DNA of 48,068 nucleotides from a plasmid. Position 1 is the first letter of the stretch, and the number at the start of each line of letters is the position of its first letter. Below, piece after piece: positions 1,791-48,041 of the stretch. The translations under genes were made by a program, and so were the position numbers. The notes beneath the pieces are model-generated. The model was given only the letters and a program-made list of their open reading frames with translations. It was not told the origin of the DNA and made no database searches. The stretch lies in sequence record NZ_CP008945.1; one strand, 5' to 3'.

Positions 1791-3037
1791 GCCAACCTCC
1801 CCTCACTGGTTAAGCCCACCGGCGTCATAGTTCCATCCGCGAGGTGGAATGTGAGCTGGTGCGGGAAGGCTTCAATCATCACGATCTGCTCGCCAACCTG
1901 GACGGGGTCGAAACTTTGGGTGCCGAGCATGTCTGCGCAGGCTTGTTCGAGGAGTGTTTCGCGTAGGTTGTGCCCCCTACAGGGGTTGCCGTTCCCGGTG
2001 CAGGCACTCCAGCACCGCCAAAACTTATACGAGGTTCCAGACTTGTAGGTGCGGGTTTTGCGTTGATAGTTCTTCCCGCACGCGCCGCAGCAGATCCGTC
2101 CAGTGAACACGCCCGTGTTCTTTGACGGGGTCGCCGCCGGACCAATCTCGCGCCGATGAGCGATTTCTGCTTGCACCGCGTCAAACATCTCCTCGTCAAT
2201 GATTGGTGGGAGGGCTTGCTCAACCCAGTATCGCGGCAGCTCCCCGTCGTTGAGGGCACATGTGGGTGCTTGGATTGTGGGGCGGTACATTTTCTGTAGC
2301 ATTTGGCAGCCCTTGTAGCGCTCATTTTCGAGCATGCGACGAAACACTGACCCGTAGAAGCGTCCTCCACCGCGCGAACGCGCCCCTTGACCATTGAGGA
2401 TCGCGGCTGTCTTTTCCGGGCTGATCCCATCGAGATAATTGGCAAACAGTAAGCGCACAATCTTGGCTTCATCTTCAATGATGGTGAACTGGCCGTCTGC
2501 CCAGCTATAGCCGTAGACGACGAAAGAATTTGTGCCACCGTTCTTGTACCGGTTACGGATTGCCCATTTGACGTTCTGGGACAGGGAACGGGATTCTTCT
2601 TGAGCAAACGACGCCAACAAGGTCAGCAGGAGTTCTCCGTCAGCGCTGAGAGTGTCGATGCGTTCGCGTTCGAAGCGCACAGCCACACCAAGGTCTTTCA
2701 GCTCACGAACCGTAGCGAGCAGGTCGACAGTGTTGCGGGCAAGGCGCGAGATCGATTTACACAACACAAGATCGATCTTTCCTGCTCTGGCTGTGTTCAT
2801 CAGGTCGGCCAGGCCTTGCCGGGATTTCATCGAAGTGCCAGTAACCCCTTCGTCAGTGAATACACCCGCATAGGCCCATCCGGGCGTGGATTGGATCAGG
2901 CGCGAATAATACGACACTTGCGCCGATAGGGATGCTAACTGCTCGACGGCGTTGGTTGAGACCCGCGTGTATGCTGCTACGTTGACCAGTTTCGGGGTCG
3001 GCGGCCGAACTGGTGTCACCACACTAACTTGTGCCAC
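1787..3037 (-). CDS. Large serine recombinase, copy B. The likely start is the GTG at 3037, preceded by GAAAGGAG; the ORF track extends to 3067.
   Basis: AAYTRVST...GVTGTSMKSRQG...KSISRLARN motifs. A Cys-rich zinc-ribbon region. A C-terminal coiled-coil-like segment. Confidence 0.85.
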   Translation of the reverse strand: MAQVSVVTPVRPPTPKLVNVAAYTRVSTNAVEQLASLSAQVSYYSRLIQSTPGWAYAGVFTDEGVTGTSMKSRQGLADLMNTARAGKIDLVLCKSISRLARNTVDLLATVRELKDLGVAVRFERERIDTLSADGELLLTLLASFAQEESRSLSQNVKWAIRNRYKNGGTNSFVVYGYSWADGQFTIIEDEAKIVRLLFANYLDGISPEKTAAILNGQGARSRGGGRFYGSVFRRMLENERYKGCQMLQKMYRPTIQAPTCALNDGELPRYWVEQALPPIIDEEMFDAVQAEIAHRREIGPAATPSKNTGVFTGRICCGACGKNYQRKTRTYKSGTSYKFWRCWSACTGNGNPCRGHNLRETLLEQACADMLGTQSFDPVQVGEQIVMIEAFPHQLTFHLADGTMTPVGLTSEGRLA

Positions 3038-3060
3038 GTTTTCTCCTTTCGTGTTAGGTC

Positions 3061-3099
3061 TATACACGCTCTAAACCAGGTGTTTATCCAGTCGTTTCG
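3061..3099 (-). promoter_or_regulatory. R-motif copy 1 (CGAAACGACTGGATAAAC...TTTAGAGCGTGTATAGACC), immediately upstream of the recombinase B RBS.
   Basis: Shares the CGA[A/T]ACGACTGGATAA core and the TTTAGAG[C/T]GTGTAT segment with the copy at 23157..23213. Confidence 0.5.
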
Positions 3100-3293
3100 C
3101 CCACAATCTGTGGTTGATAGATCGGGCTCAACGCCTGGAACAACAACCGATAGACACGCCGATACTCTGCGGGGGTTAGCACTCCTCGACCTGCCAGCAT
3201 GCTCAACGTGTGAGCGTCAGTAATGAAGGCGAGTTCTCGGGTGAACACCTCGGGCCTTGTCATCTGGTCGACCGTGGTGGCGAGCGTGTTCAT
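3084..3293 (-). CDS. Small hypothetical protein (69 aa), translationally coupled to the upstream zinc-ribbon gene by an ATGA overlap.
   Basis: ATG at 3293 overlaps the stop at 3290 of the preceding gene. No recognisable domain. Confidence 0.35.
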   Translation of the reverse strand: MNTLATTVDQMTRPEVFTRELAFITDAHTLSMLAGRGVLTPAEYRRVYRLLFQALSPIYQPQIVGETTG

Positions 3294-3673
3294 GAGCGCC
3301 CACCTCGGGTGCCAAAGCGAGCACGCACATAACAGGCGTGACAGCAATACTTTTGACCTGGCTTGTCCACGATCACGAAGCGGTGCCCGCAGTGTGCACA
3401 GGTCTGCTTGCGCACGGGCTCGGTTTTCTGCCGTTCCCGCCAAGCTTTATGCCTGCAGGCGGGCGAGCAAAACCGAGCACGAGCACCTCCCCGAATAGGG
3501 CTGGCACACCAGCGGCACACCCGCTGAGCCACCACTGAACCGGCCTCGAGATTTCGGCTGGTGCAGTATGAACGGACCTGGTCACGGGTCAAGGCGCAAA
3601 ACTCGGCAATCGCTTTATACCCCCAGCCTGCTGTGCGCAGGTTACGGATACGTTCTTCTTCAATGTTCTTCAC
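3290..3673 (-). CDS. DNA-binding protein with an N-terminal HTH (sigma region-4-like) and two CxxC...CxxC zinc ribbons. Possible regulator or recombination directionality factor.
   Basis: CRWC...CSPAC and CAHC...CCHAC motifs. GTG start preceded by GAAGGGAG. An X-motif lies upstream. Confidence 0.55.
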   Translation of the reverse strand: MKNIEEERIRNLRTAGWGYKAIAEFCALTRDQVRSYCTSRNLEAGSVVAQRVCRWCASPIRGGARARFCSPACRHKAWRERQKTEPVRKQTCAHCGHRFVIVDKPGQKYCCHACYVRARFGTRGGRS

Positions 3674-23156: not shown

Positions 23157-23213
23157 TGGCGTTTTGGGTCATGTACATACACACTCTAAACGCGCCGGTT
23201 ATCCAGTCGTATC
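23157..23213 (-). promoter_or_regulatory. R-motif copy 2 (CGATACGACTGGATAACCGG...TTTAGAGTGTGTATGTACATGACCC). It overlaps the 3' end of the C5-MTase gene.
   Basis: Shares both the R1 segment and the GGTCATGTACATAC segment of copies 3 and 4. Confidence 0.5.
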
Positions 23214-24602
23214 GACCACGTTTTCCACTCTTTCCAGGACGTGTTCGGCTACCGGCAGTGCGATCCCGTTGCCCCACAACTTGTACTGCGCCGAATCCGA
23301 CGCCGGGTCTGCGAGCCAGCTGGCGACCTGCTTGCGGGAGCGCGGCCTGACGCCTCGGAGGCGGTTCCATTCGGCCCACACGTCCACCCAGTAGTCGAGC
23401 TGGGCATCGGTGGGGTCGGTGATGGCGAGCTGGTCGCACCAGTCGTCGGGGAAGCCCTGCAACCGGGCGCACTCGACCGGCGTCAACCGCCTGGGACGCA
23501 GCGAGTGCCCGGCCACCATGGGCGGATCGGTGTAATCCGAGGCCAACAAGGCACCGGCCTGATCCTTGGTGGCGCGGATGAAATAGTCGGCCTTGGATGC
23601 GGCATAGACGGGCTCCAAGATGACCATGCCGCCCTGGTTGCAGGTCGGCTCCCCGCCTTTCAGGTCGAGGGTTTTCGACACTTCCGCTTCGTAGCCGTAG
23701 TGGCCGCCACCGCTGCGGGACAGGTGGATCGAATTCAGACCAAACACCCTGCGTTCCTCTGGGGCGTCGAGGAGGATGGGCACGTTGGTGGGTGAGTTGC
23801 CCATCCGGGCAGTCAACGTCTGCACCACCCCCAAGGAGTCGACGGTCAACCTCAAGTCCTGCAGATGATGATCCATCAATATCACCGAGCCGCTACGGAC
23901 TCCAAGGCTTGCTTCAGGGGTGTGGGCATGGTCTTGTTCTTGCGTGCCGCACGATTCAGGATGCCCTGAGCTGCTCGCGGGCTCAAAAAGAATCTCGGGT
24001 GCGGCTCGGCCTGCAAAATCTGCGACAAGGTAGATGCGGCGACGTCGTTGGACCAGACCGAAATGTTGCGCATCGAGTACACGCCACGCAACCGAGCATC
24101 CACCTGCCACAACGCATCCCGCATCTGTCCACCGGGGTACAGGGACAGGCACGTCAGCAACGGTCGGGCTCTGGATGCGGATGAGGCTCGTGAGGACCGC
24201 CGCGAAATCCGCCCCTTGGTTGGAGGAGAAGGCTCCCGGCACGTTCTCCCAGACAGCAAATCGGGGATATCGGTCATTAGTCGCCTCCCTCATTTCCTTG
24301 ATGATGCGAACAGCCTGAAAGAACAGGCCAGAACGAGAACCTGCCAGCCCGGTCTGCCGTCCTGCGACCGACAGGTCTTGGCACGGCGACCCGAACGAGA
24401 CGATGTCCACCGGCTCGATCACGGTGCCGTCGATAGTGTTGACGTCGCCGAGGTGGGTGACCGCGGGCAGACGGGTGGAGGTGACCAGAATCGGAAACGG
24501 CTCCACCTCGGACGCCCAGACGGGGCGGATACCGACGTGGAGGGCGGCGAGTGGGAAACCGCCCGACCCGTCAAACAGAGAACCAAGCGTCAACGCGGTC
24601 AT
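23199..24602 (-). CDS. DNA (cytosine-5)-methyltransferase.
   Basis: Motif I LFDGSGGF. PC-like region. ENV motif AVWENVPG. QRRR motif. The ATG at 24602 overlaps the upstream stop (ATGA). Confidence 0.85.
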   Translation of the reverse strand: MTALTLGSLFDGSGGFPLAALHVGIRPVWASEVEPFPILVTSTRLPAVTHLGDVNTIDGTVIEPVDIVSFGSPCQDLSVAGRQTGLAGSRSGLFFQAVRIIKEMREATNDRYPRFAVWENVPGAFSSNQGADFAAVLTSLIRIQSPTVADVPVPVPRWTDAGCVVAGGCSVAWRVLDAQHFGLVQRRRRIYLVADFAGRAAPEILFEPASSSGHPESCGTQEQDHAHTPEASLGVRSGSVILMDHHLQDLRLTVDSLGVVQTLTARMGNSPTNVPILLDAPEERRVFGLNSIHLSRSGGGHYGYEAEVSKTLDLKGGEPTCNQGGMVILEPVYAASKADYFIRATKDQAGALLASDYTDPPMVAGHSLRPRRLTPVECARLQGFPDDWCDQLAITDPTDAQLDYWVDVWAEWNRLRGVRPRSRKQVASWLADPASDSAQYKLWGNGIALPVAEHVLERVENVVDTTG

Positions 24603-25849
24603 GTGGTGCCTCGATCCACTGCCTTCACCACATCCAGGTAGGCGAGCTGGTGGCCGTCGCGGAGACACGTGATGCCTGCGGCGTCTCCGGTGGCGTCAGC
24701 ATAGCGGCGCAGAATAACGCTCGCGTATTTTTCGTCGAGCTCCATGCAATAGCAGATGCGGTCGGTTGCCTCAGCTGCCATGAGCGTGGAGCCCGAGCCT
24801 GCGAACGTGTCGAGCACGATCGCATTGGCCTGCGTGGAGTTCCCAATCGGATACGCCAACAAGTCCAGTGGCTTGCTGGTTGGGTGGTCGGCGTTGCGGC
24901 GGGGCTTGGCGAAGTTCCAGATCGTCGTCTGCTTACGATCCGCATACCAGCGATGCTTACCCGTCTTCACCCAGCCAAAGAGCACCGGCTCATGCTGCCA
25001 CTGATACGGGGATCGGCTAAGGACGAGGGAATCTTTCACCCAGATGCAACACCCAGACAGATAGAAACCGGCATCAGCGAACGCTTTACGGAAGTTGAGA
25101 CCTTCAGTGTCAGCGTGGAAAACATAAGCGGACGCACCCTTCTCACACACCGCCGCCATGTTCGTAAACGCCGATAGCAGTAAGTCGTAGAACTTATCGC
25201 CATCCATCTTGTCGTTCTTGATCGACAAACCCGACCCTGATTCGAAGGCGACGTTATAGGGCGGATCGGTGAGCACAAGATTGGCTTTCTTGCCATCCAT
25301 CAGCGTGGCGACATCGTCGGCGCTGGTGGCATCCCCGCACACGAGTCGATGGCGGCCGACCGTCCAGATATCCCCACGCTCCACGAACGCGGCGGCCTCC
25401 AGGGCGGCGGTAAGGTCGAAATCATCATCCGCCACCTCGCCCTCATCCAATGAGCCGATAAGCTGCGCGATCTCAGCATCGTCAAAGCCAGTCAGTTCAG
25501 CATCGAAATCCGAAGCATCGAGGTCGGCGATGAGGAGGGCGAGTTTGGATTCATCCCACTCGCCACTGATCTTGTTCAAGGCAATGTTGAGTGCTTTCTC
25601 GCGGGTCTCATCAAGCTCAACAACGATCACGTCCACATGCTCGTGGCCGAGGTCTTCCAGCACCTTCAAGCGCTGATGACCACCTACAATGTTGCCGGTG
25701 GTCTGGTTCCAGATGACGGGTTCAACGTAGCCAAACTCGGTCAGGGATCGCTTGAGCTTCTCATACTCAGCATCACCAGGCTGAAGATCTTTACGCGGAT
25801 TGTAATCAGCAGGCTTCAACTCACCTATCGGCATCGTTTTCATGAGCAT
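24599..25849 (-). CDS. ParB-like N-terminal nuclease domain fused to a DNA methyltransferase (N6-adenine or N4-cytosine, DPPY motif).
   Basis: ParB/Srx-like GGHQRL segment. TDPPYN catalytic motif. SAM-binding FAGSGST. Confidence 0.8.
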   Translation of the reverse strand: MLMKTMPIGELKPADYNPRKDLQPGDAEYEKLKRSLTEFGYVEPVIWNQTTGNIVGGHQRLKVLEDLGHEHVDVIVVELDETREKALNIALNKISGEWDESKLALLIADLDASDFDAELTGFDDAEIAQLIGSLDEGEVADDDFDLTAALEAAAFVERGDIWTVGRHRLVCGDATSADDVATLMDGKKANLVLTDPPYNVAFESGSGLSIKNDKMDGDKFYDLLLSAFTNMAAVCEKGASAYVFHADTEGLNFRKAFADAGFYLSGCCIWVKDSLVLSRSPYQWQHEPVLFGWVKTGKHRWYADRKQTTIWNFAKPRRNADHPTSKPLDLLAYPIGNSTQANAIVLDTFAGSGSTLMAAEATDRICYCMELDEKYASVILRRYADATGDAAGITCLRDGHQLAYLDVVKAVDRGTT

Positions 25850-27011
25850 GCTTCTTCACCGCCTTCCGCAGCGCATCAATGTGAGCGAACGAGTTTTCCC
25901 AGCGCAGACCGGGATGGCCGAAGTGCCCATAAGTTGAGTAGCGCGTGAATCCTGGCTTGCGAAGATTCAAAGCATCGATGATCCCACCGGGGCGTAGCGG
26001 AAACACCTCGGCTGCAGCCTTAGCGAGGACCTCGTCGGCGTATTCGCCCGTGCCAAGCGTGTCCACACTGAAGGCGACCGGGTCGGCCTTCCCAATCGCA
26101 TAACTCAGGCTCACTTGGCACTCGACGGCCAACCGTGCCTCGACGATAGTCTTGGCGATCAGACGCGCCATATAGGCACCCGAACGATCAACCTTCGAGG
26201 CATCCTTACCAGAGAACGCACCACCACCATGTGGGGCAAGACCACCGTAACTATCAACCATCAACTTGCGACCCGTCAGACCCGTGTCGGCCTTCGGCCC
26301 ACCCACCGTAAACAAGCCCGAGGGATTCACCAGAATCTCGGTGTCAGCGCTCATCGGCAGATACGGCTTACACGCGGATGCAACGATAAGGGTTCTCACC
26401 TCCGACGCCAACTCATCGAGATCCTTGGTTTTATCGTGCTGAATCGACACCACCACCGTCTCAACCGCCACGGGCCTACCAGCAGCGTCGTAACGAACTG
26501 TCACCTGCGCCTTACCATCAGACTTAATGCCAGTGATGGTGCCGTCTTTGCGTGCCTGGTCGAGCCGGGCGCAAATCTCATGTGAGAGCACCAACGGCAA
26601 CGGCAAACGCTGCGGAGTCTCGGCCGTGGCATAACCATAAACAGTGCCCTGATCACCCGCTCCTTGGAGCGCGAACTCGGTATCATCACCGAAACGAGCC
26701 TCCAAGGACTTGGAGACTCCGGCGTTGATGTCTGGAGACTGCCTGCGAGTCCAGACGAAAACGAGGAACTTCCACGGCACATAACCCGCCTTCGCCAACG
26801 CATAACGCACCGACTCACGAATACGCGGACGACCCTTCGACGTAATATCGCCAGTCACAATGATCCTGCGGCCAGATGCCATCACTTCTACTGCAACGCG
26901 TGCGGATGGGTCCTCATAAAGGAGGTCATCAAGGATCGTGTCCGCGATCAGATCGCAGAGCTTATCGGGATGGCCGATACACACGGCCTCAGCAGTCTTC
27001 GTGACAGACAT
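25821..27011 (-). CDS. metK: S-adenosylmethionine synthetase (MetK). Probable start MSVTKTAEAVCIGHPDK at 27011.
   Basis: GHPDK motif. Methionine adenosyltransferase central and C-terminal signature segments. ~396 aa. Confidence 0.85.
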   Translation of the reverse strand: MSVTKTAEAVCIGHPDKLCDLIADTILDDLLYEDPSARVAVEVMASGRRIIVTGDITSKGRPRIRESVRYALAKAGYVPWKFLVFVWTRRQSPDINAGVSKSLEARFGDDTEFALQGAGDQGTVYGYATAETPQRLPLPLVLSHEICARLDQARKDGTITGIKSDGKAQVTVRYDAAGRPVAVETVVVSIQHDKTKDLDELASEVRTLIVASACKPYLPMSADTEILVNPSGLFTVGGPKADTGLTGRKLMVDSYGGLAPHGGGAFSGKDASKVDRSGAYMARLIAKTIVEARLAVECQVSLSYAIGKADPVAFSVDTLGTGEYADEVLAKAAAEVFPLRPGGIIDALNLRKPGFTRYSTYGHFGHPGLRWENSFAHIDALRKAVKKHAHENDADR

Positions 27012-27093
27012 ACACACACTCACTTTCCAAAGAATCAGGGCAGAACAAAACGTCCACCCGTCAAACACAGGCAGGCGCAAGAAAGAAAAAGGG

Positions 27094-38636: not shown

Positions 38637-38887
38637 GCCGCATCACCACCCTCACGGGTGACACCTGCCGCGTCGGCCAGCGCCATCAGGTCGTCGTCGG
38701 TTTCGGCGATGTCGATCTGCTTGACCGAGTTGCCGGGCACGACGATGGTGACGCGCTGCTTGCGACCCAGGAGCTTGCGCATGATGCGTCCGCGCAGGGT
38801 GACTGTGCGGGTGCCGACGATCCCCGGATCATCGGGGATGTGCTTGGCGATATGGAGCTTGAGCCGATGCTGGGTCATCTCCTTCAC
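38633..38887 (-). CDS. Hypothetical phage protein (84 aa).
   Basis: ORF. An X-motif lies immediately upstream. Confidence 0.45.
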   Translation of the reverse strand: MKEMTQHRLKLHIAKHIPDDPGIVGTRTVTLRGRIMRKLLGRKQRVTIVVPGNSVKQIDIAETDDDLMALADAAGVTREGGDAA

Positions 38888-39663
38888 CTGCCTTCCTTAC
38901 TGGTGGGAGTGGCCCGGGTGGCTGCTCCCTTCACCCCACTGCCGACACCATCGGAAGTGTTAAATCGCGTCGCCTCCACCGCTGCGCGAAGGACCGCAGC
39001 TGCTTCCTTGAACAGTTGTGAGACCCGGGCTCGCGACAGGCCCAGGGCGCGGGCAACATCAGACTGCTTCATGTCCGCGCCGACGAGCATCAGCTCCATC
39101 ACTTGTTTGTGCTTGCCCTCCAGGCCAGCGATCGCCTCCCGCAGCGCTTGGAATTCGCGGGCCTTCCGAGCGGTGTCTTCAGCGGCGATCAGCTGGTCTT
39201 CGGGCGACGCGGTGATATCCTCGACAACCGCAGATGGATCGTCGGACTTGTCAACAACGAATTCCGGTTCACGGTCGATCTCCATGAACCAGTCGAGCGA
39301 CCACGGCGCGTTTTTCGGCACCCGGCAGCCACGGCGCGGGCCGCACCCGGCACCGCAGCTGCACTTGCGAGCGCCGGGGCCACGATCACCCCGGTAGGCC
39401 TCGTGGAAGACGGCCTCTTCCTGCCTGGCCATGTCATCGAGAATCTGCTGCGGATGCCTCGGCTTGATCTCATCGACCGGACGGCCTGTCTGTTGGGCGC
39501 GTTCACGCCGGTCGGTTTTCACCATCACGGCAAACTCGCCGGGGTCGATCTCGTAGACGTCGGTGATGGATTCGTGCTTGTTGTTGTCGGCTTCGTGCTT
39601 AAAGCGGATTGTGAGCGCAGCGTTGTTGTTCTGCGTTTCCTGCGCGTCCGTACGCTTGGACAT
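38884..39663 (-). CDS. DNA-binding protein with a Cys cluster and a C-terminal sigma-70 region-4-like HTH. Probable start MSKRTDAQ at 39663.
   Basis: CSCGAGCGPRRGC cluster. C-terminal ELMLVGADMKQSDVARALGLSRARVSQL HTH. Confidence 0.5.
   Translation of the reverse strand: MSKRTDAQETQNNNAALTIRFKHEADNNKHESITDVYEIDPGEFAVMVKTDRRERAQQTGRPVDEIKPRHPQQILDDMARQEEAVFHEAYRGDRGPGARKCSCGAGCGPRRGCRVPKNAPWSLDWFMEIDREPEFVVDKSDDPSAVVEDITASPEDQLIAAEDTARKAREFQALREAIAGLEGKHKQVMELMLVGADMKQSDVARALGLSRARVSQLFKEAAAVLRAAVEATRFNTSDGVGSGVKGAATRATPTSKEGR
38928..38969 (-). promoter_or_regulatory. X-motif copy 3, embedded in the 3' end of the upstream gene.
   Basis: CCTTCACCCCACTGCCGACACCATCGGAAGTGTTAAATCGCG. Confidence 0.45.
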
Positions 39664-39708
39664 TGGGGATCTCCTGTCGGATTGGGATCCGCAGGAGTCC
39701 GCCACGCC

Positions 39709-40078: not shown

Positions 40079-40753
40079 TTACGCGGCGAGCTTCAGGTTC
40101 TTGATGCGGATTGCGGCAGCCTGCTTAGAAACCTCGAAAGTCCCAGCGAGTTCCCGGACGACACGGCGCTTGCGTCGCTCATCCAATGATCGCCAGCCTT
40201 CGGGGGCAAGCTCGGTGAATGCCTGCGAGAACGGGTCACGGGGCATGAGTAGCGCCGCCCCGAGGTAGTTGGCTTGGAACTCGGCGCGGTCCACCTTGTT
40301 GTCGGCGCGAACGCCCTCCGAGGTAGTAGTGAACGGGCGATACCCTGTTCCTCCCTTGCACTTCATCCGAGGGTCTCGGTAGTAGATATGCCGATGCAGG
40401 AGGAGGTGAGCGCACTCGTGAGCAATCGTGAAACGCAGTCGACTGTCCGGGGAGTCACGCAAGGCATCGTCGTCGATAACGATTGTTCGTTCTGGAAAAA
40501 CGATGTCAACCCTTGCGCCGGTAGACTCGAAGACAGGGATGGACAGCTCCTGGAAGATCGACATTCCAAGCACGCTGCCGTCCGACGAAAGCCGCTGATA
40601 GTCCAGTGCCGCTCCCAGGTGAAACTCGGCGAAGCTGTCGACGTCGAGCGGGATAGGCGCTACCAGTTGAGCGCCACCGGCGAATTTCTCGAGCTCCTTC
40701 TCTGCGCGAGCCTCGAGTCGCTCCTTGCTGAGGTATTTGGGGTCAAGGCTCAC
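40079..40753 (-). CDS. ImmA/IrrE-family metallopeptidase (anti-repressor protease).
   Basis: HEXXH motif FTIAHECAHLLLH. Gene pairing with the upstream XRE repressor. Confidence 0.8.
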   Translation of the reverse strand: MSLDPKYLSKERLEARAEKELEKFAGGAQLVAPIPLDVDSFAEFHLGAALDYQRLSSDGSVLGMSIFQELSIPVFESTGARVDIVFPERTIVIDDDALRDSPDSRLRFTIAHECAHLLLHRHIYYRDPRMKCKGGTGYRPFTTTSEGVRADNKVDRAEFQANYLGAALLMPRDPFSQAFTELAPEGWRSLDERRKRRVVRELAGTFEVSKQAAAIRIKNLKLAA

Positions 40754-41127
40754 TGGTCAGCTTCCCCGCCTTCAATGATGTCGATGATGTCCCGCCACTG
40801 CTGGTCACTCAGGTCATGTTCTTTCGCCCGGCGAAGAGCGACGCGAGCCATGTCGGTTTGCATAATGTAGCCCGACAGGTCGGTAGACACCTGGTTCTCG
40901 CGAGTCAATGCTGCCAGGTCATACATCCGCTCCCTCTCGGAGCGGGAGAGTCGCAACGTCTCCGCGATGTCCCCCAGCTTGCCGTCCGGGGCAGCCCGGC
41001 GGCCTTTCTCGATGTCACTCAGGTAGGGAGCGGTCACACCGATGGCGTCCGCGAACTTGCGCATGGTTAAGCCTTGCGCCTTCCTATGTGCTTCCAGGAA
41101 GGCACCGAAGTTCTCTGATTCAGTCAT
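40750..41127 (-). CDS. XRE-family HTH repressor (ImmR/CI-like). Probable start MTESENF at 41127.
   Basis: HTH QGLTMRKFADAIGVTAPYLSDIEKGRR. RBS GAGGAGG. Confidence 0.8.
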   Translation of the reverse strand: MTESENFGAFLEAHRKAQGLTMRKFADAIGVTAPYLSDIEKGRRAAPDGKLGDIAETLRLSRSERERMYDLAALTRENQVSTDLSGYIMQTDMARVALRRAKEHDLSDQQWRDIIDIIEGGEADQ

Positions 41128-41148
41128 TGGAACAGCCTCCTCACGTCT

Positions 41149-41166
41149 GTTAGCAACTAAGCTAAC
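41149..41166. promoter_or_regulatory. Operator site 2: perfect dyad GTTAGCAACTAAGCTAAC, 22 bp upstream of the repressor start. Probable autoregulation site.
   Basis: Perfect 6-bp half-sites with an N6 spacer. Confidence 0.55.
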
Positions 41167-41196
41167 ACGTGAAGTAGGTTGGTGCAAGTCTACGGA

Positions 41197-44100
41197 TCAG
41201 GAGTCGTCTCGTTGGCTATCCTCGTGCCGGGGTCGGTTGAGGCGGTCGTGGATGAGCGGGAGCAGGATCGCGTCCACGTCGGCTCGGAAGGCTTTGTCCG
41301 ACAGGTACTTCATGGAGAAGTCGTGATTTTGGGTCATCCGCGCCAGCATGACGTCGGGCATCTTCTCGTCGTAGATGATCTTGAACAGGTCGAGCGGGTT
41401 ATGGGCACGCAGCTGGATCTCGTTGTCTTGGGCGAGGTCGTCGGCGACCTGTTCGAGCACTTTGTCCATGTTGGTGAACTCGGTGCCCCATCGTTCGTTG
41501 AGGGAGTCGAGGATCTTTGAGAGTCGCTCGCGGTCGTCTTCGGTGGGCATGCTCAGCTTGGGCGAGTTGTTCAACTCACCCACCTGGTCTTGTAGGTCGA
41601 TGGAGCCCTCGTAGACCGACTGGAGCCGGTAGTACTGCAAGGTGACCTCATCATCCAGGTGTGGGGCGGGGTCGCCGTCGATGTGGAGCTTGCGGGTCAG
41701 CAGTTTCGCGTATGCGGCGAACTTGTGCAGCTGCTCGTCGTCGAAGCGGATGATGTGGGTCAAGAACTCGTAGTTGCGGTTGAACTTGTTGAACGCCGAG
41801 CGCACCTCGACTTTTTCCTCGTCGTCAAGGGCGTCGAAGCGGCCGACCGCCGGGTCGAGATAGGCGTTGAGCCTGCCAAAGTCGAGGTTGGTCTGCTGCT
41901 TCTGCTCTCTGAAGAACACGGTCGCGAACCCGTCGATCTCCTCGACCTGCCACAGCTGGTAGGAGGCGATCAGGTGGTAGAGGTCGTAGACGATGTTCGG
42001 GTCGGTTTCCTCGCTGATCGAGGTCGACACGTAGTAGTCCTGGAACGCCGCCTGAATGTCGTCAGCGCTGTTGACGAAGTCCAACACGAACGTGTCTGAC
42101 TTGCCCGGGCACATCCGGTTGATCCGTGACAGAGTCTGCACGGCCTTGACCCCGTGGAGCTTCTTGTCCACATACATGGTCTGCAGCAGGGGCTGGTCGA
42201 ACCCGGTCTGGTATTTCTCGGCCACCAGCAGAATCTGGTACTCACCGGTGTCGAACCGGTCTGGCAGCTCGGCTTCGGGGAAGCCGTTGAGTTGTTCCTC
42301 GGTGTAGTCATGCCCGTCGTCTTCGACGGTGCCGGAGAACGCCACCAGCACACCCAGGTCGGTGTAGCCCTTGGCTTTGATGTAGTTGGCGAACGCGAAG
42401 TAGTAGCGTACCGCGTGCAACCGGGAGCCGGTCACCAGCATTGCCTTGGCTTTGCCGCCGATCTTGTGCGCCACGTTGCTGCGGAAGTGCTCGATGATGA
42501 TCTCGGCCTTCTGCCGCAGATTGTGCGGATGCAGGGCTAAGTACTTGCCCAGCGCCTTGTTGGCCTGCTTCTTGGCGTACTCCGGATCGTCAGCGGTGGC
42601 CTTACCAACCTTGTAGTACGTCTGGTAGGTGATGTAGTTCGCCAGCACGTCGAGGATAAACCCCTCCTCGATCGCCTGCTTCATCGAATACACATGGAAC
42701 GGGCGCGGCGCGCCACCAGGCGTCGGAGTGCCGAAAATCTCCAGAGTCTTCTGCTTCGGGGTGGCCGTGAACGCGAAGAACGACAGATTCGGCTGACAAC
42801 CGTGGGTAGCCATGTCGGCGGCGATCTGCTCGTCAACCTCCAACTGTTCGGTCTCCACCTGAGCCTCAGCCTTCGCATACCGATCCAGCAACTCGGCCTC
42901 AGACTCCTGACCCGCTTGGGCAGTGTCAGCCAGCACCTGCTTGAGCCGCTCAGATGCCTGCCCGGTCTGCGACGAGTGCGCCTCATCCACAATCACCGCG
43001 AACCGCTTCCCGACCGTCACAATGTTGGACACGTCAACGAACGGAAACTTCTGCAACGTCGAAATGATGATCCGAGCACCCCGACCCAGCGCATCAGTGA
43101 GCTGACGGGCGTTCTTGTCCACCTTCACCACCACACCGGCGGTGTGATCCATCGAAAACACCGTGTCCTGGAGTTGCTTGTCCAACACCCTCCGGTCAGT
43201 GATCACAATGATCGAATCAAACACCACCCGCTGCTCGTCATCATGCAGGTTTGACAGGTGGTGAGCCAGCCACGCGATCGTGTTCGACTTGCCCGAGCCC
43301 GCCGAATGCTGCACCAAATAGTTATGACCAGCGCCGTTCGCCTTCGCGTCCGCGATGAGTTTACGCACCGCATCGAGCTGGTGGAAGCGCGGAAAGATCA
43401 CCTTGTCTTTCGACTTCGCCGAACGCCCCTCGGGAGTCTTGCCGGGCACGAACTGCACAAACCGGTGCAAAATATCAAGCAGTGAATCCTTCGCCAGCAC
43501 CTGCTCCCACAAATACGAGGTCTTGAACTTCCCCTCCACCGGAGGATTACCAGCACCATTCTGGAAACCTCTGTTGAACGGCAGGAACACCGTATCTTGA
43601 CCGGCCAGCTTCGTCGTCATCCACACCTCATCGGTGTCAACCGCGAAATGCACCACCGCACGCCGATTCAACCCAAACAACGGCTCCGAGGCCGGGCGAT
43701 CCCGCTTGTACTGGGCGATCGCGTTCCGGTAGGTCTGCCCCGTCAGCGGGTTCTTCAACTCGAGCGTCGCCACCGGGATGCCGTTCACCAACAGCACCGT
43801 GTCAACCGAGTTCTCACTGCGCGTTGAATACCGCAGCTGGCGCACGATGCTCATCTCGTTCGCCCAATACTTCTCAGCAAGCACCTCGTTCAAGTCAGTG
43901 CCGGGAGCAAAATACACCAGCTTGAACCGAGCACCCACATCCTCAACGCCACGGCGCAACACATCGATCACACCACGCTGATCAAGCTGCGCAGCGACAC
44001 GCTTCAGAAACTTCTGCTCCGCGTTACCCCGGTAACTGCGCTCCAACTTCGCCCACTGATCAGGCTGAGTAACCTTCACAAACCGGATCAGATCCGCAGG

Positions 44101-44226
44101 ATACAGACACAGCTCACGATCAAAACCCTGCGGGTCACGCGACTCAAAGCGGTCAAACTCCGCGCCCCGGGCAGTCAGCCAGTACTCGATCTCCGACTCA
44201 AACCGCCGCTCCGACGTATCCATCAC
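41197..44226 (-). CDS. hsdR: Type I restriction enzyme R subunit (HsdR).
   Basis: 1009 aa. N-terminal Type I/III restriction domain. DEAD-box helicase motifs (GSGKS, DEAH). Confidence 0.9.
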   Translation of the reverse strand: MMDTSERRFESEIEYWLTARGAEFDRFESRDPQGFDRELCLYPADLIRFVKVTQPDQWAKLERSYRGNAEQKFLKRVAAQLDQRGVIDVLRRGVEDVGARFKLVYFAPGTDLNEVLAEKYWANEMSIVRQLRYSTRSENSVDTVLLVNGIPVATLELKNPLTGQTYRNAIAQYKRDRPASEPLFGLNRRAVVHFAVDTDEVWMTTKLAGQDTVFLPFNRGFQNGAGNPPVEGKFKTSYLWEQVLAKDSLLDILHRFVQFVPGKTPEGRSAKSKDKVIFPRFHQLDAVRKLIADAKANGAGHNYLVQHSAGSGKSNTIAWLAHHLSNLHDDEQRVVFDSIIVITDRRVLDKQLQDTVFSMDHTAGVVVKVDKNARQLTDALGRGARIIISTLQKFPFVDVSNIVTVGKRFAVIVDEAHSSQTGQASERLKQVLADTAQAGQESEAELLDRYAKAEAQVETEQLEVDEQIAADMATHGCQPNLSFFAFTATPKQKTLEIFGTPTPGGAPRPFHVYSMKQAIEEGFILDVLANYITYQTYYKVGKATADDPEYAKKQANKALGKYLALHPHNLRQKAEIIIEHFRSNVAHKIGGKAKAMLVTGSRLHAVRYYFAFANYIKAKGYTDLGVLVAFSGTVEDDGHDYTEEQLNGFPEAELPDRFDTGEYQILLVAEKYQTGFDQPLLQTMYVDKKLHGVKAVQTLSRINRMCPGKSDTFVLDFVNSADDIQAAFQDYYVSTSISEETDPNIVYDLYHLIASYQLWQVEEIDGFATVFFREQKQQTNLDFGRLNAYLDPAVGRFDALDDEEKVEVRSAFNKFNRNYEFLTHIIRFDDEQLHKFAAYAKLLTRKLHIDGDPAPHLDDEVTLQYYRLQSVYEGSIDLQDQVGELNNSPKLSMPTEDDRERLSKILDSLNERWGTEFTNMDKVLEQVADDLAQDNEIQLRAHNPLDLFKIIYDEKMPDVMLARMTQNHDFSMKYLSDKAFRADVDAILLPLIHDRLNRPRHEDSQRDDS

Positions 44227-45416
44227 GCAGCCTCCTCACTAACCCGAACCTTGCCCGTCACCACATCATTAATAACCTGCTTGCGATAAGCACCCAACAA
44301 CTCCATCTGGCGGTCAATATCGCCAATCAAGCCGTCAATTTCTGCTGTCTTCGAATCGAGGAAATCTGCGATTTCTTCCTGCTCGCGAAGCGGCGGAAGA
44401 AGTGTTGGCAGTTTCCTTAGTTCTGAATAGTTCAACGACTGCCGCACGCCAGATCCAAGCCCGTAGAAAATCTTCTTTAGATCGTAAGCGCGCATCATCC
44501 ATCCAAGGAATCGCGGATCTATCTGAGCCCCGGGAATAAGCCCAATGTATGCTCCTGTGATGATTCCACGTTCACTAACGTAACCACTGCGCAGGCTTCT
44601 CTTGTCATTTTGCAGATCGGTCATGCGTAGAACTACATACCCAGGATTAACGATTTGATAAGTATCAAACGAAGCTGACAACAGCCCAAAAGCCAGATTA
44701 ATATCCTTGCGAATGATCGAACCGTAGCTAAGGCTCAGGAGATTACTCTCCGAAAGATCCTTGTTCTTCGTTTTGTTCTCATCGGTCATATTTGAAAGCG
44801 TCTGGATCTGCCACGCTTCTGGGATCTCGCCGATCCACTGCAACCCACTTTCTTTCATGGGGGCTTCGGGGTCGAGTCCCTTCGTGACGGTGTGGGCGAT
44901 CAACTCACGCTTGTAACGCTCCAACAACTCCCGCTGGCGCCTGAGCTTCTCGACCACCACGTCAATCTCAGCAGTCTTCGCATCCAAGAACGCAGCCATC
45001 CGTTCCTGTACTTCAATGTGCGACGGTATGGAAATTCGAACCTTCTCGATAACGCTGGCTGATATTCCCGGCTGTGCAGCCGCCTGAGAATATTGATTTA
45101 GATTCATTTGGATTAGCAGATAATACAAATACCTTGGGAGAACAAGACCGGAGATCGAGGCGATAAGTGCATGCTCGGATGCATATGCGGGTTGTGCAAC
45201 AAAGTGCACGTTTCCGGCCAGTGCTCCCTGCCGACCCACTAGAAGGTTAGTTCCTTCAATATTCGATGTCTCGGTGTACCCTCTTATTCCGTTACCTCCA
45301 AATACTGGATAGGTTCCCGTTTCGTGGATCTCTTCTCCTCGAATAGATCCACCGGAACGGAATCTGGCTAGTCGCTTAAGCGGGATTTCCAAACTTCCAC
45401 CTGGGTAACTGTCCAT
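44223..45416 (-). CDS. hsdS: Type I restriction-modification specificity subunit (HsdS) with two target-recognition domains.
   Basis: Two TRDs separated by conserved coiled-coil spacers (..LDAKTAEID..). Lower GC than the flanking genes. Confidence 0.85.
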   Translation of the reverse strand: MDSYPGGSLEIPLKRLARFRSGGSIRGEEIHETGTYPVFGGNGIRGYTETSNIEGTNLLVGRQGALAGNVHFVAQPAYASEHALIASISGLVLPRYLYYLLIQMNLNQYSQAAAQPGISASVIEKVRISIPSHIEVQERMAAFLDAKTAEIDVVVEKLRRQRELLERYKRELIAHTVTKGLDPEAPMKESGLQWIGEIPEAWQIQTLSNMTDENKTKNKDLSESNLLSLSYGSIIRKDINLAFGLLSASFDTYQIVNPGYVVLRMTDLQNDKRSLRSGYVSERGIITGAYIGLIPGAQIDPRFLGWMMRAYDLKKIFYGLGSGVRQSLNYSELRKLPTLLPPLREQEEIADFLDSKTAEIDGLIGDIDRQMELLGAYRKQVINDVVTGKVRVSEEAA

Positions 45417-47465
45417 CTATACCGCCTGCTCACTGAATAGTTTGGCGATGGAGGCTTGGATGTGGGCTCCAAGGCTTTGGATTTCGGCGAGGGTTTTGGT
45501 TGGGTCGCCGAGTTCTTCGTATTGGTAGAAGTAGCGGGTGAAGGGGATCTCGTAGCCGATCTTGGTCTTGTCGGGGTCGACGTAGGCGTCGGCCGCGTAG
45601 GGGATGACTTCGCGCTGGATGTAGGCGTCGATGTCTTCAGCGAGTGGGATCTGCTCGGTGTCGCGCAGCGCAGGGTCAGGTTCCGGGTTGCCCTTGGTGT
45701 CGCGGCAGATGTCTGCAGTCGGGTCAGTTTCACCCAGAGCCACCACGATCGCTTTCAACAGCGGGGCGCGCACCGTCAAACCATGCTCTTTGAAAGAGGC
45801 TTTGAGGACCTTCGTGAATTCGTCTCGGTTCTTCCACACCCGCTGGTCGCCGAGAGTTTCGATGGCGTCGACGATCGCTCGTTGGGTCTTCTTGCCGCCC
45901 TCGATCTCTTGGGTGCGGGCGGCTTCGCTACGCTTCTTCGAGGTGGCCAGATTCTTGAACGGGGTCCGCTCCCAGACTCGCTCGACGCGCTCAGGTGTGG
46001 CGGTGAAGTTCAAACGTAGCGGGCGTTCCACCGTGACTTCATGGAAGCCGAACTCGCGGGTGTCGAAAATCTTGGAGTGCTCACCCTCGGTGAAGTCGCC
46101 GTAGATGCGCGCGATCTGGGCAATGTTGTCAGCGGTGAGGTATTTGCGTTTTTCGCCGAGCGGTTTGCGCATCCTGGCAAAGAACTTGGTGGCGTCGATC
46201 AGTTGCACCTTGTTCTTGCGGATCGATGCCTTCCGGTTGGAGAGCACCCAGATGTAGGTAAGGATGCCGGTGTTGTAGAACATCTGGTCAGGCAGGGCGA
46301 CGATGGTCTCAAGCCAGTCGTTTTCAAGAATCCAGCGACGAATGTTCGACTCGCCCGACCCTGCCGCGCCGGTAAACAGGGGCGAGCCGTTGAACACGAT
46401 CCCGATCCGAGTGCCCGGCGCGTTCTGCGTATCAGCCGGATCGTAAGACTTCATCTTCGAGATCATGTGCTGCAAGAACAGGAACGACCCATCAGAGATT
46501 CGGGGCAGGCCAGCGCCGAAGCGCCCCTTCCACCCCCGCTTCTCGGCCTCGTCCTTGATCGGGCCTGCGTACTTCTTCCATTCCACGCCGAAGGGTGGGT
46601 TGCACAGCATGTAGTTGAACGTCCGACCCGCTGTTCTGTCAGCGGTCAGCGAGTTGCCGAAGTAGATTCGGTCGGCGTCATCGCCCTTGATGAGAATGTC
46701 GGACTTTGCCACCGCGTAGGATTGCGGGTTGAGCTCCTGCCCGTACACTTCGATGCGCGCGTCGTCGTTGAGGACCCGGGCTCGTTCGATCGCTTCGGAG
46801 AGCATGCCACCGGTGCCAACTCCCGGGTCATACAGCGACGCCATGAACCCGGGCGCGCATATGGCATCCATGTCCGGGTCGAACAGCACCTCGACCATGA
46901 GCTGGATGACTTCACGTGGGGTGAAGTGCTCACCGGCGGTCTCGTTGGACAGCTCGTTGAATCGCCGGATCAGTTCTTCAAAGATCGACCCCATGTCTTC
47001 GTTGGAGACCGCTGCAGGTAAGAAGTCCACCGCAGGGTCAGTGAAAGCATCGACGATCTGGTAGAGCAGATCGGAGCGGTCGAGACGGTCAATCACGGTA
47101 TAGAAGTCGTAGGACTTCATCACGTCGCGGGCGTTCCGCGAAAAGCCCTCCACGTAGGAGCGCAGGTTACCTTCCAGGTTGTCAGGATCGTTCTTGAGCG
47201 TGTGCAGCGTGAACCTGGAGGTGTTCCAGAACGGGTAGCCCGTAGCTCTCGCGTATTGGATGCGCTTGACCTCAGCCGGGACACCCTTCTGGTCACGAAT
47301 CTGGGCAACTTTGTCCTTCGTACTCACGAGAACCGAATCGAGACGGGTAAGCACCGTGAACGGCAAGATCACGTCCCCGTACTCGTGCTCCTTGTAGTCA
47401 CCGCGCAGCAGGTTCGCAATCTTCCAAATGAAGCTGACATAGTTCGTTGTTTTCTCAGTGCCCAT
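45417..47465 (-). CDS. hsdM: Type I restriction-modification N6-adenine methyltransferase subunit (HsdM).
   Basis: HsdM N-terminal domain (IWKIANLLRGDY..EYGDVILPFTVLTRLD). NPPF catalytic motif. SAM-binding region. Confidence 0.9.
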   Translation of the reverse strand: MGTEKTTNYVSFIWKIANLLRGDYKEHEYGDVILPFTVLTRLDSVLVSTKDKVAQIRDQKGVPAEVKRIQYARATGYPFWNTSRFTLHTLKNDPDNLEGNLRSYVEGFSRNARDVMKSYDFYTVIDRLDRSDLLYQIVDAFTDPAVDFLPAAVSNEDMGSIFEELIRRFNELSNETAGEHFTPREVIQLMVEVLFDPDMDAICAPGFMASLYDPGVGTGGMLSEAIERARVLNDDARIEVYGQELNPQSYAVAKSDILIKGDDADRIYFGNSLTADRTAGRTFNYMLCNPPFGVEWKKYAGPIKDEAEKRGWKGRFGAGLPRISDGSFLFLQHMISKMKSYDPADTQNAPGTRIGIVFNGSPLFTGAAGSGESNIRRWILENDWLETIVALPDQMFYNTGILTYIWVLSNRKASIRKNKVQLIDATKFFARMRKPLGEKRKYLTADNIAQIARIYGDFTEGEHSKIFDTREFGFHEVTVERPLRLNFTATPERVERVWERTPFKNLATSKKRSEAARTQEIEGGKKTQRAIVDAIETLGDQRVWKNRDEFTKVLKASFKEHGLTVRAPLLKAIVVALGETDPTADICRDTKGNPEPDPALRDTEQIPLAEDIDAYIQREVIPYAADAYVDPDKTKIGYEIPFTRYFYQYEELGDPTKTLAEIQSLGAHIQASIAKLFSEQAV

Positions 47466-47664
47466 TCGGGTCAACTCCATCTTCCATCAATCGCTCGTAA
47501 CGCTCATGCGACATGACCACCACGAGAGGCTTTCCGTAACGCAACACGTAGGCCACATCGTCACCATCAGCCACTTCCTTGAGCAGCTTCGATGCCTGAC
47601 CACGTCCAAGGTCGCCAATGTTGATGTGCTTCATCGACTTCTTCGCCGTACGCTTCCGCACCAT
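47455..47664 (-). CDS. Phd/YefM-family antitoxin-like DNA-binding protein, translationally coupled to hsdM (11-nt overlap).
   Basis: KHINIGDLGRGQASKLLKEVADGDDVAYVLRYGKPLVVVMSHERYERL matches the Phd/YefM fold pattern. No cognate toxin gene follows. Confidence 0.6.
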   Translation of the reverse strand: MVRKRTAKKSMKHINIGDLGRGQASKLLKEVADGDDVAYVLRYGKPLVVVMSHERYERLMEDGVDPNGH

Positions 47665-47699
47665 CGTATCCTTCACCACGAGTTACCGCCAACGCCTCA

Positions 47700-47775
47700 T
47701 TTTCCCATAAATGCATGCAAAATATCGTCACAACATGCGCGAGATACTACATGTACTTTTGCATGTGGTTCTTCG
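47700..47775. promoter_or_regulatory. AT-rich promoter/operator region upstream of the Phd-like gene, containing the inverted repeat CATGCAAAAGTA ... TATTTTGCATG.
   Basis: Lower GC content. TTGTGAC -35-like element. Dyad symmetry typical of antitoxin-type autoregulation sites. Confidence 0.35.
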
Positions 47776-48041
47776 TGAAGATGGAGACATGTGCGCGAGC
47801 CAGAACGCCCCACAAGGTCGAAGGTGGGCACGGTCTTATCAATCACAATTGAGGGCACGCCCCCTCGCCAGATATCCGCTAACGCAAGCCCACCAGCAGA
47901 CCCCCTCAACCAGAAACGTGCACCACTCCAACGGGAAGATCGGGGACGAGCACCCGATTACTGAACCTCCAGCACACCAGCGAACAGCCCCAGAAACAAC
48001 AAAATCCCTGGTCAAAAGGGGTTCAGGAACTCACGCGGTTT

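Follow-up and report, generated by a model that had tools for sequence, protein, structure and literature searches.

A Phd/YefM-fold protein without a toxin as the probable promoter-binding autoregulator of restriction-modification operons in Actinomycetota, Bacillota and their phages

At the very end of the 48,068-nucleotide stretch of record NZ_CP008945.1 analyzed here (the window, taken at its full length), a gene encoding a 69-aa protein lies directly upstream of hsdM, hsdS and hsdR, the genes of a Type I restriction-modification (RM) system. An initial annotation, made from the sequence, had described this small gene as a toxin-less orphan of the Phd/YefM type that overlaps hsdM by 11 nt and might control the RM genes. 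The locus comprises the following genes and signals.

47455..47664, minus strand: Phd/YefM-fold gene, 69 aa, ATG start, beginning MVRKRTAKKSMKHINIG.
47669..47673, minus strand: Shine-Dalgarno sequence AAGGA, 4 nt 5' of the small-gene ATG, read directly from the sequence.
47455..47465, minus strand: overlap of the small-gene stop codon with the hsdM start codon, 11 nt, ATGGGCACTGA.
45417..47465, minus strand: hsdM, methyltransferase subunit of the Type I system, 682 aa when read from the conserved start; HsdM_N and N6_Mtase domains; PADLOC MTase_I PDLC03029, 873 bits.
44223..45416, minus strand: hsdS, specificity subunit; Methylase_S.
41197..44226, minus strand: hsdR, restriction/translocase subunit; HSDR_N, SWI2_SNF2 and T1R_D3-like domains; PADLOC REase_I.

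The presence of hsdM, hsdS and hsdR with their characteristic domains in one operon identifies the system as Type I. For the small gene, we preferred the ATG start over an alternative upstream GTG at 47679, because the GTG lacks a Shine-Dalgarno sequence and the homologues start at the ATG. In hsdM, the conserved start codon is the ATG at position 47465, giving the 11-nt overlap that had been described. The junction, (A/G)TGAGCACTGA, was identical in 18 of 18 distinct actinomycete gene copies, and this arrangement suggests translational coupling of the small gene to hsdM. In the Firmicute relatives, 17 to 100 nt separate the small gene from the next gene and there is no overlap. The tight coupling proposed initially thus holds for the actinomycete branch, where the overlap occurs in all copies, but does not extend to the Firmicute genes.

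The fold pattern of Phd/YefM antitoxins that had been recognized in the 69-aa protein was borne out by several searches. The protein matched TIGR01552 (phd_fam, NCBIfam) with 28.3 bits, exceeding the cut-off of 20.8, and PF02604 (PhdYeFM_antitox) with an E-value of 7.7e-7 and 29.2 bits. An AlphaFold2 model built from 35 homologues (predicted local distance difference test score, 82) displayed a beta-alpha-beta-beta-alpha topology, with a strand at residues 12-15, a helix at 21-33, strands at 37-42 and 45-51 and a helix at 53-61. When this model was compared to the PDB with Foldseek, the top ~29 matches were Phd/YefM-fold antitoxins throughout, with probabilities near 1, and included RelB2 of Mycobacterium tuberculosis, YefM, the N-domain of VapB46 and the Phd-operator DNA complex 4zm2. 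Only the fold search succeeded, as a search of the PDB by sequence profile gave no match. Furthermore, neither a Pfam helix-turn-helix (HTH) model nor the PADLOC Control_protein model matched the protein.

The protein can be divided into a basic N-terminal arm (residues 1-10), a Phd N-domain (residues 11-61) and a short conserved tail, GVDPNGH, for which the consensus across the family is GID(I/P)(N/S)E(Y/H). The amino acid sequence of the arm (KRRKVP-like) is conserved, while its codons vary synonymously. Residues N15, R21, G22, S25, G44, K45, P46, R55, Y56, R58 and D65 are invariant across phyla. R21-G22-Q23 is invariant or nearly so in the family and R21 aligns with R10 of Phd, and we infer that Arg21-Gly-Gln23 is equivalent to the base-reading Arg10-Gln11 of YefM. 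Using hhalign, residues 11-65 mapped onto residues 1-53 of P1 Phd, i.e., its DNA-binding and dimerization domain, while the 20-residue tail of Phd that binds Doc (residues 54-73) had no counterpart. Past the aligned part, 4 residues are left, compared to 20 in Phd and ~30 in YefM, and all family members are 59 to 72 aa long when counted from the conserved start.

To place the small gene in its family, homologues were collected and ~100 related loci from Actinomycetota, Bacillota and their phages were examined. A word-indexed search returned 35 close homologues, each of them bearing the name "Phd/YefM family antitoxin," from Corynebacterium, Arcanobacterium, Schaalia, Mobiluncus, Brevibacterium and others, and a profile search returned 332 homologues, including Firmicute proteins of the same length that are 40 to 54% identical. 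The family is narrow, with 118 representatives at E<=1e-3 among 1.84 billion; P0123 (2068 aa), also retrieved in this search, was discarded as a spurious match to immunoglobulin/sushi repeats. No homologue of the small protein was found in the plasmid collection.

In every informative locus of the ~100, the next gene 3' of the small gene encodes a DNA methyltransferase. The initial annotation had suggested looking for adjacency of Phd-like genes and hsdM in other genomes, and such adjacency is indeed widespread. An overlapping hsdM follows the small gene in 32 of 32 actinomycete loci and is itself followed by hsdS and hsdR (hsdM is truncated in two loci, and one contig is too short to judge). 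The Firmicute relatives, 43 to 54% identical, head Type I operons, LlaJI-type operons (two methyltransferases, an AAA_5/McrB-like protein and RE_LlaJI) or a lone N6 methyltransferase gene, and the copy in a gut phage (Ca. Heliusvirales, locus L051) stands in front of Type I genes of another family, which encode an 896-aa HsdM, a HindI-like HsdR and a YgjP-like peptidase. Of 52 loci retrieved from IMG/VR, 49 had sufficient downstream sequence, and a DNA methyltransferase gene lay directly 3' of the small gene in all 49: 37 were Type I loci, 11 carried LlaJI R1/R2 after gamma-class N6 (m6A), N6_N4 or C5 (m5C) methyltransferases, and one carried N6_N4 and C5 methyltransferases. These operons share nothing but the small gene at their head, which speaks for an action at the promoter and against a particular protein partner as the target.

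This distribution bears on the function implied by the database names. If the protein were a true type II antitoxin, it would neutralize by direct binding either an RM component, such as HsdR, or an unrecognized toxin encoded elsewhere. Every database names the protein an antitoxin, its position ahead of an overlapping gene resembles that of antitoxins in toxin-antitoxin (TA) operons, and RM systems can behave as addiction modules. However, the C-terminal segment that binds the toxin is missing, and the downstream partners are non-homologous (two Type I families, LlaJI/McrBC-like systems with three methyltransferase classes and a lone methyltransferase) and offer no common protein target. Moreover, no Doc, YoeB, RelE or ParE gene was found in any flank, and the flanks vary between genomes. 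We therefore regard an antitoxin function as highly improbable.

The absence of a toxin next to the small gene, noted at the outset, was confirmed: the next gene is hsdM, and the small gene is adjoined by a Doc/YoeB/RelE-type toxin gene neither in the window nor in any of the related loci. Different genomes carry unrelated sequences upstream of the small gene, and in the closest relatives, homology stops ~404 nt upstream of it, which is exactly the end of the window. In four loci of the Schaalia/Actinomyces type (L007, L008, L010 and L014), the region ~2.5 kb upstream of the cassette contains RhuM (Fic/DOC-like) genes (about 2485-3534, minus strand). We considered them as a displaced Doc-type toxin and rejected them, as they are not conserved in other clades, are located on the opposite strand and stand behind an ABC ATPase gene. 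They are probably defense-island neighbors.

The small gene is a conserved component under strong purifying selection. Pairwise comparisons between actinomycete clades gave ratios of nonsynonymous to synonymous substitution rates (dN/dS) of 0.02 to 0.1, with saturated dS. The term orphan is thus appropriate in that no toxin accompanies the gene, but not in the sense of a remnant. A functionless relic of a decayed phd-doc or yefM-yoeB module, standing next to an RM system inserted by chance, would account for a short protein with neither tail nor toxin, and one copy is visibly decaying. The selection on the gene, its identical position in ~100 loci of two phyla and phages and the conservation of the predicted operators described below nevertheless make this origin scarcely credible. 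In the decaying copy (L027 10001-10201, Corynebacterium sp. HS2168-gen11), dN/dS is ~0.5 and the basic arm, R42 and P46 are lost. The upstream palindromes were lost along with the decay of the protein, while hsdM, hsdS and hsdR are intact and of full length. This locus is a natural "regulator-off" variant.

We then analyzed the regions upstream of the small genes. In Firmicutes and their phages, the palindrome GTAATTAC was present in 31 copies in 28 of 34 distinct 200-nt upstream regions, compared to 4 copies in the remaining 448.6 kb (~500-fold enrichment). It is located in the 17-nt spacer of near-consensus TG-extended TTGAAA/TTGTAA-N17-TATAAT promoters, regardless of the RM type encoded downstream. 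From this position in the promoter spacer, repression in the Firmicute and phage branch appears well supported. Many Firmicute loci carry a second GTAATTAC ~50 nt upstream of the promoter-embedded copy, within the longer palindrome TTGTAAAAGTAATTACTTTTACAA. Another long palindrome of the Firmicute loci, TCTAACTTGCCAAGTTAGA, was considered as a second operator, bound by an HTH protein, and was rejected because in L088 the equivalent element is scored as an intrinsic terminator belonging to the preceding gene.

The promoters of the actinomycete genes carry palindromes of another sequence. The most common palindromic hexamer was ACATGT, with 40 copies in 22 of 24 distinct promoters (the next best had 7). 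The RCATGY/TACATGTA sites are phased every 12 bp: relative to the codon of the conserved Met11, they are found at positions -148/-136/-112, -139/-115/-91 and -161/-149/-137/-113 in three clades and at -132/-120/-84 in the clade of the window. Six clade representatives contained 19 CATG sites where 2.2 were expected. In 14 of 24 cases, the two CATG sites of a pair were separated by multiples of 12 nt, a number reached in none of 5000 shuffles or random placements. The elements upstream of the small gene in the window are the following.

47748..47755, no strand: core operator palindrome (predicted), TACATGTA; the only copy in the 48-kb window, 0.10 expected.
47761..47766, no strand: second RCATGY site, GCATGT, 12 bp center to center from the core palindrome.
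47713..47718, no strand: third site in phase, GCATGC, 36 bp away from the core palindrome; directly adjoins the conserved TTTATGGGAAAA box.
47733..47738, no strand: extra RCATGY site, ACATGC, off the 12-bp phase.
47787..47792, no strand: extra ACATGT site, upstream of the array and off phase.
47700..47711, minus strand: box TTTATGGGAAAA, which reads T-T/A-TGGGAAAC in other clades.
47744..47749, minus strand: possible -10 hexamer TAGTAT (TANNNT), overlapping the core palindrome; a guess from reading the sequence.

The dyad CATGCAAAA/TTTTGCATG (47714-22 / 47757-65), to which the initial annotation had drawn attention, is real. It forms one part of a larger RCATGY array, and the relevant predicted operator would be the 12-bp-phased array and not the lone long-range dyad. 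The pair RCATGY-N6-RCATGY occurs once in the window, at 47749-47766 (0.06 expected), and ACATGT is not enriched across the window (7 copies, 10 expected). A global repressor of the phage, considered as a possible role, was ruled out on these two grounds. All actinomycete clades (L001-L032) also share an invariant box, T(T/A/G)TGG(G/A)AAAC, ~45 nt upstream of the small gene. Neither a recognizable -10 or -35 element nor a part in an RNA structure was found for it. An ECF-like (extracytoplasmic function) reading of the box as GGAAC..GTT was discarded because the spacing does not fit. Similarly, we rejected the idea that an attenuator or other structured RNA lies in the leader that separates the palindromes from the start codon, as RNAalifold predicted no pairs in 11 divergent leaders and Rfam gave no match.

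Taken together, these data make it probable that the 69-aa protein is a promoter-binding autoregulator of its RM operon, that is, a controller of the Phd fold without a toxin. The initial annotation had offered two explanations, a transcriptional controller analogous to the controller (C) proteins of RM systems or an RM system that had replaced the toxin. The first is favored by the comparative evidence, namely the position at the 5' end of RM operons, the missing toxin-binding tail and the palindromes in the gene's own promoter. In the mechanism that we propose, the protein would be a stand-alone DNA-binding and dimerization domain of the Phd/YefM type, whose toxin-neutralizing tail was lost or was never there, and would serve as the built-in transcriptional autoregulator of the operon phd-like, hsdM, hsdS, hsdR. 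Its dimers would read the RCATGY palindromes through Arg21-Gly-Gln23, and dimers on sites 12 bp apart, lying on one face of the DNA, could occlude RNA polymerase. The operon would fire upon entry into a cell that lacks the protein and would later reduce its own expression to a constant low level. The 11-nt overlap of the actinomycete genes may in addition tie the synthesis of the regulator to that of HsdM.

Several points weigh against this proposal. DNA binding, dimerization and the sign of regulation are all predictions. The PF02604 score of 29.2 bits is 0.6 below the gathering score of 29.8, and the E-values of the Foldseek matches are weak (0.03 to 0.5) because the domain is short. A sigma-70 consensus scan of the upstream region in the window found no promoter, and the -35 and -10 elements are likewise unplaced in the other actinomycete loci, so that the sites could lie upstream of the promoter, as would fit an activator. 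The Firmicute motif GTAATTAC differs from the actinomycete one, and extrapolation from the first branch to the second is thus an analogy. Moreover, both the methyltransferase and the restriction gene belong to the operon, and negative autoregulation alone would therefore not give the delay of restriction after methylation that C proteins provide. Finally, an autorepressor leaves the conserved tail GIDxxE(Y/H) and the invariant TGGGAAAC box unexplained.

The protein could be an activator or a C-like dual switch, activating from distal sites at low occupancy and repressing from proximal sites at high occupancy. C proteins work in this way (PMC12707154), the actinomycete loci carry two to five sites over ~80 bp whose overlap with the core promoter could not be demonstrated, and the second upstream GTAATTAC of many Firmicute loci would suit such a scheme. 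On the other hand, the best-conserved Firmicute and phage site is located inside the spacer of a near-consensus TG-extended promoter that needs no activator, and YefM, Phd and RptR, a regulator of Type I RM islands discussed below, are repressors. We consider activation or dual control unlikely; the dual mode is the chief competitor of simple repression. For the window itself, our confidence in a purely repressing action is lower than that in autoregulation.

The surroundings of the cassette raise the question whether the protein serves the RM genes or the phage that carries them. The whole 48-kb window is one complete prophage with the Phd-RM cassette at one end. The following genes are of note.

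40750..41187, minus strand: XRE-type HTH gene (CapH/ImmR-like), 145 aa, 9 nt past hsdR; PADLOC capH, E 4e-6.
40079..40753, minus strand: gene for an M78 (ImmA/IrrE, CapP-like) Zn-metallopeptidase, partner of the HTH gene, 224 aa; PADLOC capP, E 3e-18.
219-1790 and 1787-3067, minus strand: two tandem large serine recombinase genes, at the other end of the prophage.
23199-24668, minus strand: C5 cytosine methyltransferase.
24599-25849, minus strand: ParB-N6_N4 methyltransferase.
25821-27080, minus strand: S-adenosylmethionine synthetase.

After the recombinases, the gene order is lysin, tail, tape measure, capsid, ClpP protease, portal, TerL, C5 and ParB-N6 methyltransferases, S-adenosylmethionine synthetase, SNF2 helicase, D5 primase, ANT, PolA, DUF2800, a sigma-like protein, M78 peptidase, XRE HTH, hsdR, hsdS, hsdM and, at the very end, the Phd-like gene. 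The two methyltransferases and the synthetase look like a self-protection or anti-restriction set that the phage carries beside its own Type I system. The sigma-like protein, encoded after the M78 gene (38884-39705, minus strand; 273 aa), has a C terminus resembling sigma-70 region 4 or KorA and may be an early regulator of the phage; sigma-like genes of a similar kind flank the Firmicute cassettes L033 and L044.

In this setting, the small protein could be the immunity repressor of the prophage or a substrate of the M78 protease, in the manner of ImmR/ImmA or CapH/CapP, with the RM genes as mere cargo. The cassette and the HTH and M78 genes stand together at the end of a whole prophage, and the M78 protein matches the PADLOC capP model. 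In Firmicute phages, the small gene is divergent from the replication genes, and an M78 protein of 494 to 521 aa is encoded after hsdR. Nevertheless, the paired operator occurs at no other place in the 48-kb phage, the M78 gene of the window has an HTH partner of its own, and the LlaJI-type operons yielded no M78 homologue. In addition, chromosomal loci L026, L031 and L032 carry a Phd-RM cassette without M78 or phage genes. A role in prophage immunity is, in our opinion, very unlikely, and autoregulation of the RM operon remains the preferred explanation.

The HTH/M78 pair is indeed optional. It is present in only some loci, was seen only where a prophage-type context could be checked, and is truncated in L023, L025 and L028. 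In chromosomal cassettes such as these three, where ABC, FtsX or DUF4143 genes come next, the pair is missing. It thus probably represents a module of the phage immunity type and does not belong to the cassette. Zn-metallopeptidase genes nevertheless recur directly 3' of hsdR in Type I operons led by a regulator: M78 in the window and in Firmicute phages (L033 14674-16170; loci L064-L102), where the proteins have no recognizable HTH, a YgjP-like peptidase in the Heliusvirales locus L051 (16202-16954) and M48 in the RptR island. This recurrence is the basis of a speculative reading, in which the Phd-fold protein would act as a sensor-controlled gate for an inducible defense operon, with its tail GIDxxE(Y/H) as the cleavage or docking site of the Zn-metallopeptidase. 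If so, the repressor would be destroyed upon phage infection or DNA damage, which would increase restriction, and an architecture of repressor, RM genes and protease would have arisen convergently on at least two unrelated repressor folds. We regard such a gate as distinctly unlikely.

Other features of the cassette and its carrier are as follows. Closely related cassettes and flanking phage DNA were found in Actinomyces urogenitalis, Gleimia hominis and Corynebacterium, with 88 to 95% nucleotide identity over the aligned stretches, which implies a recent spread across actinomycete orders. A related prophage of similar size on an IMG/VR contig (L052) encodes a Phd-like protein that is 99% identical, along with HsdM (84%), HsdR (89%), HTH (76%) and M78 (59%) proteins. 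One record, titled Staphylococcus chromogenes strain M79.2 (L022), contains an actinomycete-type cassette with HTH and M78 genes and with HsdM and HsdR 67 to 77% identical to those of the window; this is either a contaminated assembly or an inter-phylum transfer. The hsdS gene is the variable module of the cassette, with 27 to 53% identity between loci whose HsdM and HsdR are 68 to 96% identical. In L020, the C-terminal half of HsdS alone was detectable, and in L019, no match to HsdS was found. This pattern suggests shuffling or loss of specificity domains.

The transcription of Type I RM systems is poorly known (PMC12707154, a 2025 review), and the controllers described for them so far are limited to an HTH-containing C-type gene in Mycoplasma and RptR (2025). 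Searching the literature on Phd/YefM in connection with hsdM, LlaJI or controller proteins, we found no description of Phd-fold RM controllers. Our data suggest that there is a third class of RM controller, with a structure unrelated to the other two, derived from the DNA-binding module of TA systems, spread over Actinomycetota, Bacillota and their phages and serving LlaJI/McrBC-like systems as well. They also provide a concrete and testable regulator-operator pair, with RCATGY or GTAATTAC as the site. If the proposal is correct, TA and RM addiction or defense modules exchange regulatory parts, and a portable unit of promoter, operator and repressor may govern how phage-borne RM systems become established in new hosts. 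The antitoxin name is probably wrong for the tail-less family: several hundred database clusters named "type II TA system Phd/YefM family antitoxin" are probably RM regulators that inflate the counts of TA systems.

Among known systems, the closest functional analogue of the protein is RptR. This regulator of 79 aa is encoded by the first open reading frame of Type I RM islands in Gammaproteobacteria and represses its own promoter via two or three 6-bp TAGCTA palindromes that overlap core promoter elements, including the -10 (PMC12255303). Likewise, the small gene studied here opens a Type I RM operon, and its promoter contains two or more 6-bp palindromes; in both cases, regulator and site are conserved together, and the RptR island also ends with a Zn-metallopeptidase gene. 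The two proteins are set apart by the description of RptR, which consists of four alpha helices and has no homologue in the PDB (PMC12255303), whereas an alpha/beta Phd/YefM fold is predicted here. They also differ in their sites (TAGCTA compared to RCATGY or GTAATTAC) and phyla, and the present family heads LlaJI-type operons and lone methyltransferase genes in addition.

The protein also resembles the C proteins (C.PvuII, C.AhdI and C.Esp1396I), which are dimers that set RM expression after transfer to a new host. It, too, is small, is encoded at the head of an RM operon and has palindromic boxes in its own promoter. However, C proteins contain an Xre-type HTH, usually precede the restriction gene and first activate and then repress, whereas the present protein has no HTH, is always encoded 5' of the methyltransferase gene and probably only represses. 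The small gene is first in its operon but precedes the methyltransferase rather than the restriction gene, co-transcription being suggested by the overlap or the short gaps. A C-family gene upstream of hsdMSR is known in Mycoplasma (PMC5282649, cited in PMC12707154).

With YefM and Phd (yefM-yoeB, axe-txe and phd-doc), the protein shares the N-terminal fold, the base-reading arginine (and glutamine), the first position in the operon and the overlap with the next gene. The YefM dimer reads GTAC cores through Arg10-Gln11 (PMC7544224), and its operators contain TGTACA/GTAC cores located 12 bp center to center at the -35/-10 region (PMC1802561). These short palindromes with GTA/TAC half-sites have the same geometry as the phased actinomycete sites. 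Unlike YefM and Phd, the present protein has neither the toxin-binding C-terminal region nor a toxin, and hence no conditional cooperativity is expected; its basic N-terminal arm and its conserved GIDxxE(Y/H) tail are additional features, and the operon that it would control is a defense system. As for CapH/CapP and ImmR/ImmA, it is the HTH and M78 pair after hsdR that matches the capH and capP models, and such pairs regulate defense operons or mobile elements. In contrast to CapH/CapP, the pair in the window is optional and is located downstream of the RM operon, not upstream and divergent. Overall, the protein would work like the C proteins and RptR without being a member of either group, and it lacks two hallmarks of an antitoxin, the neutralizing tail and the cognate toxin.

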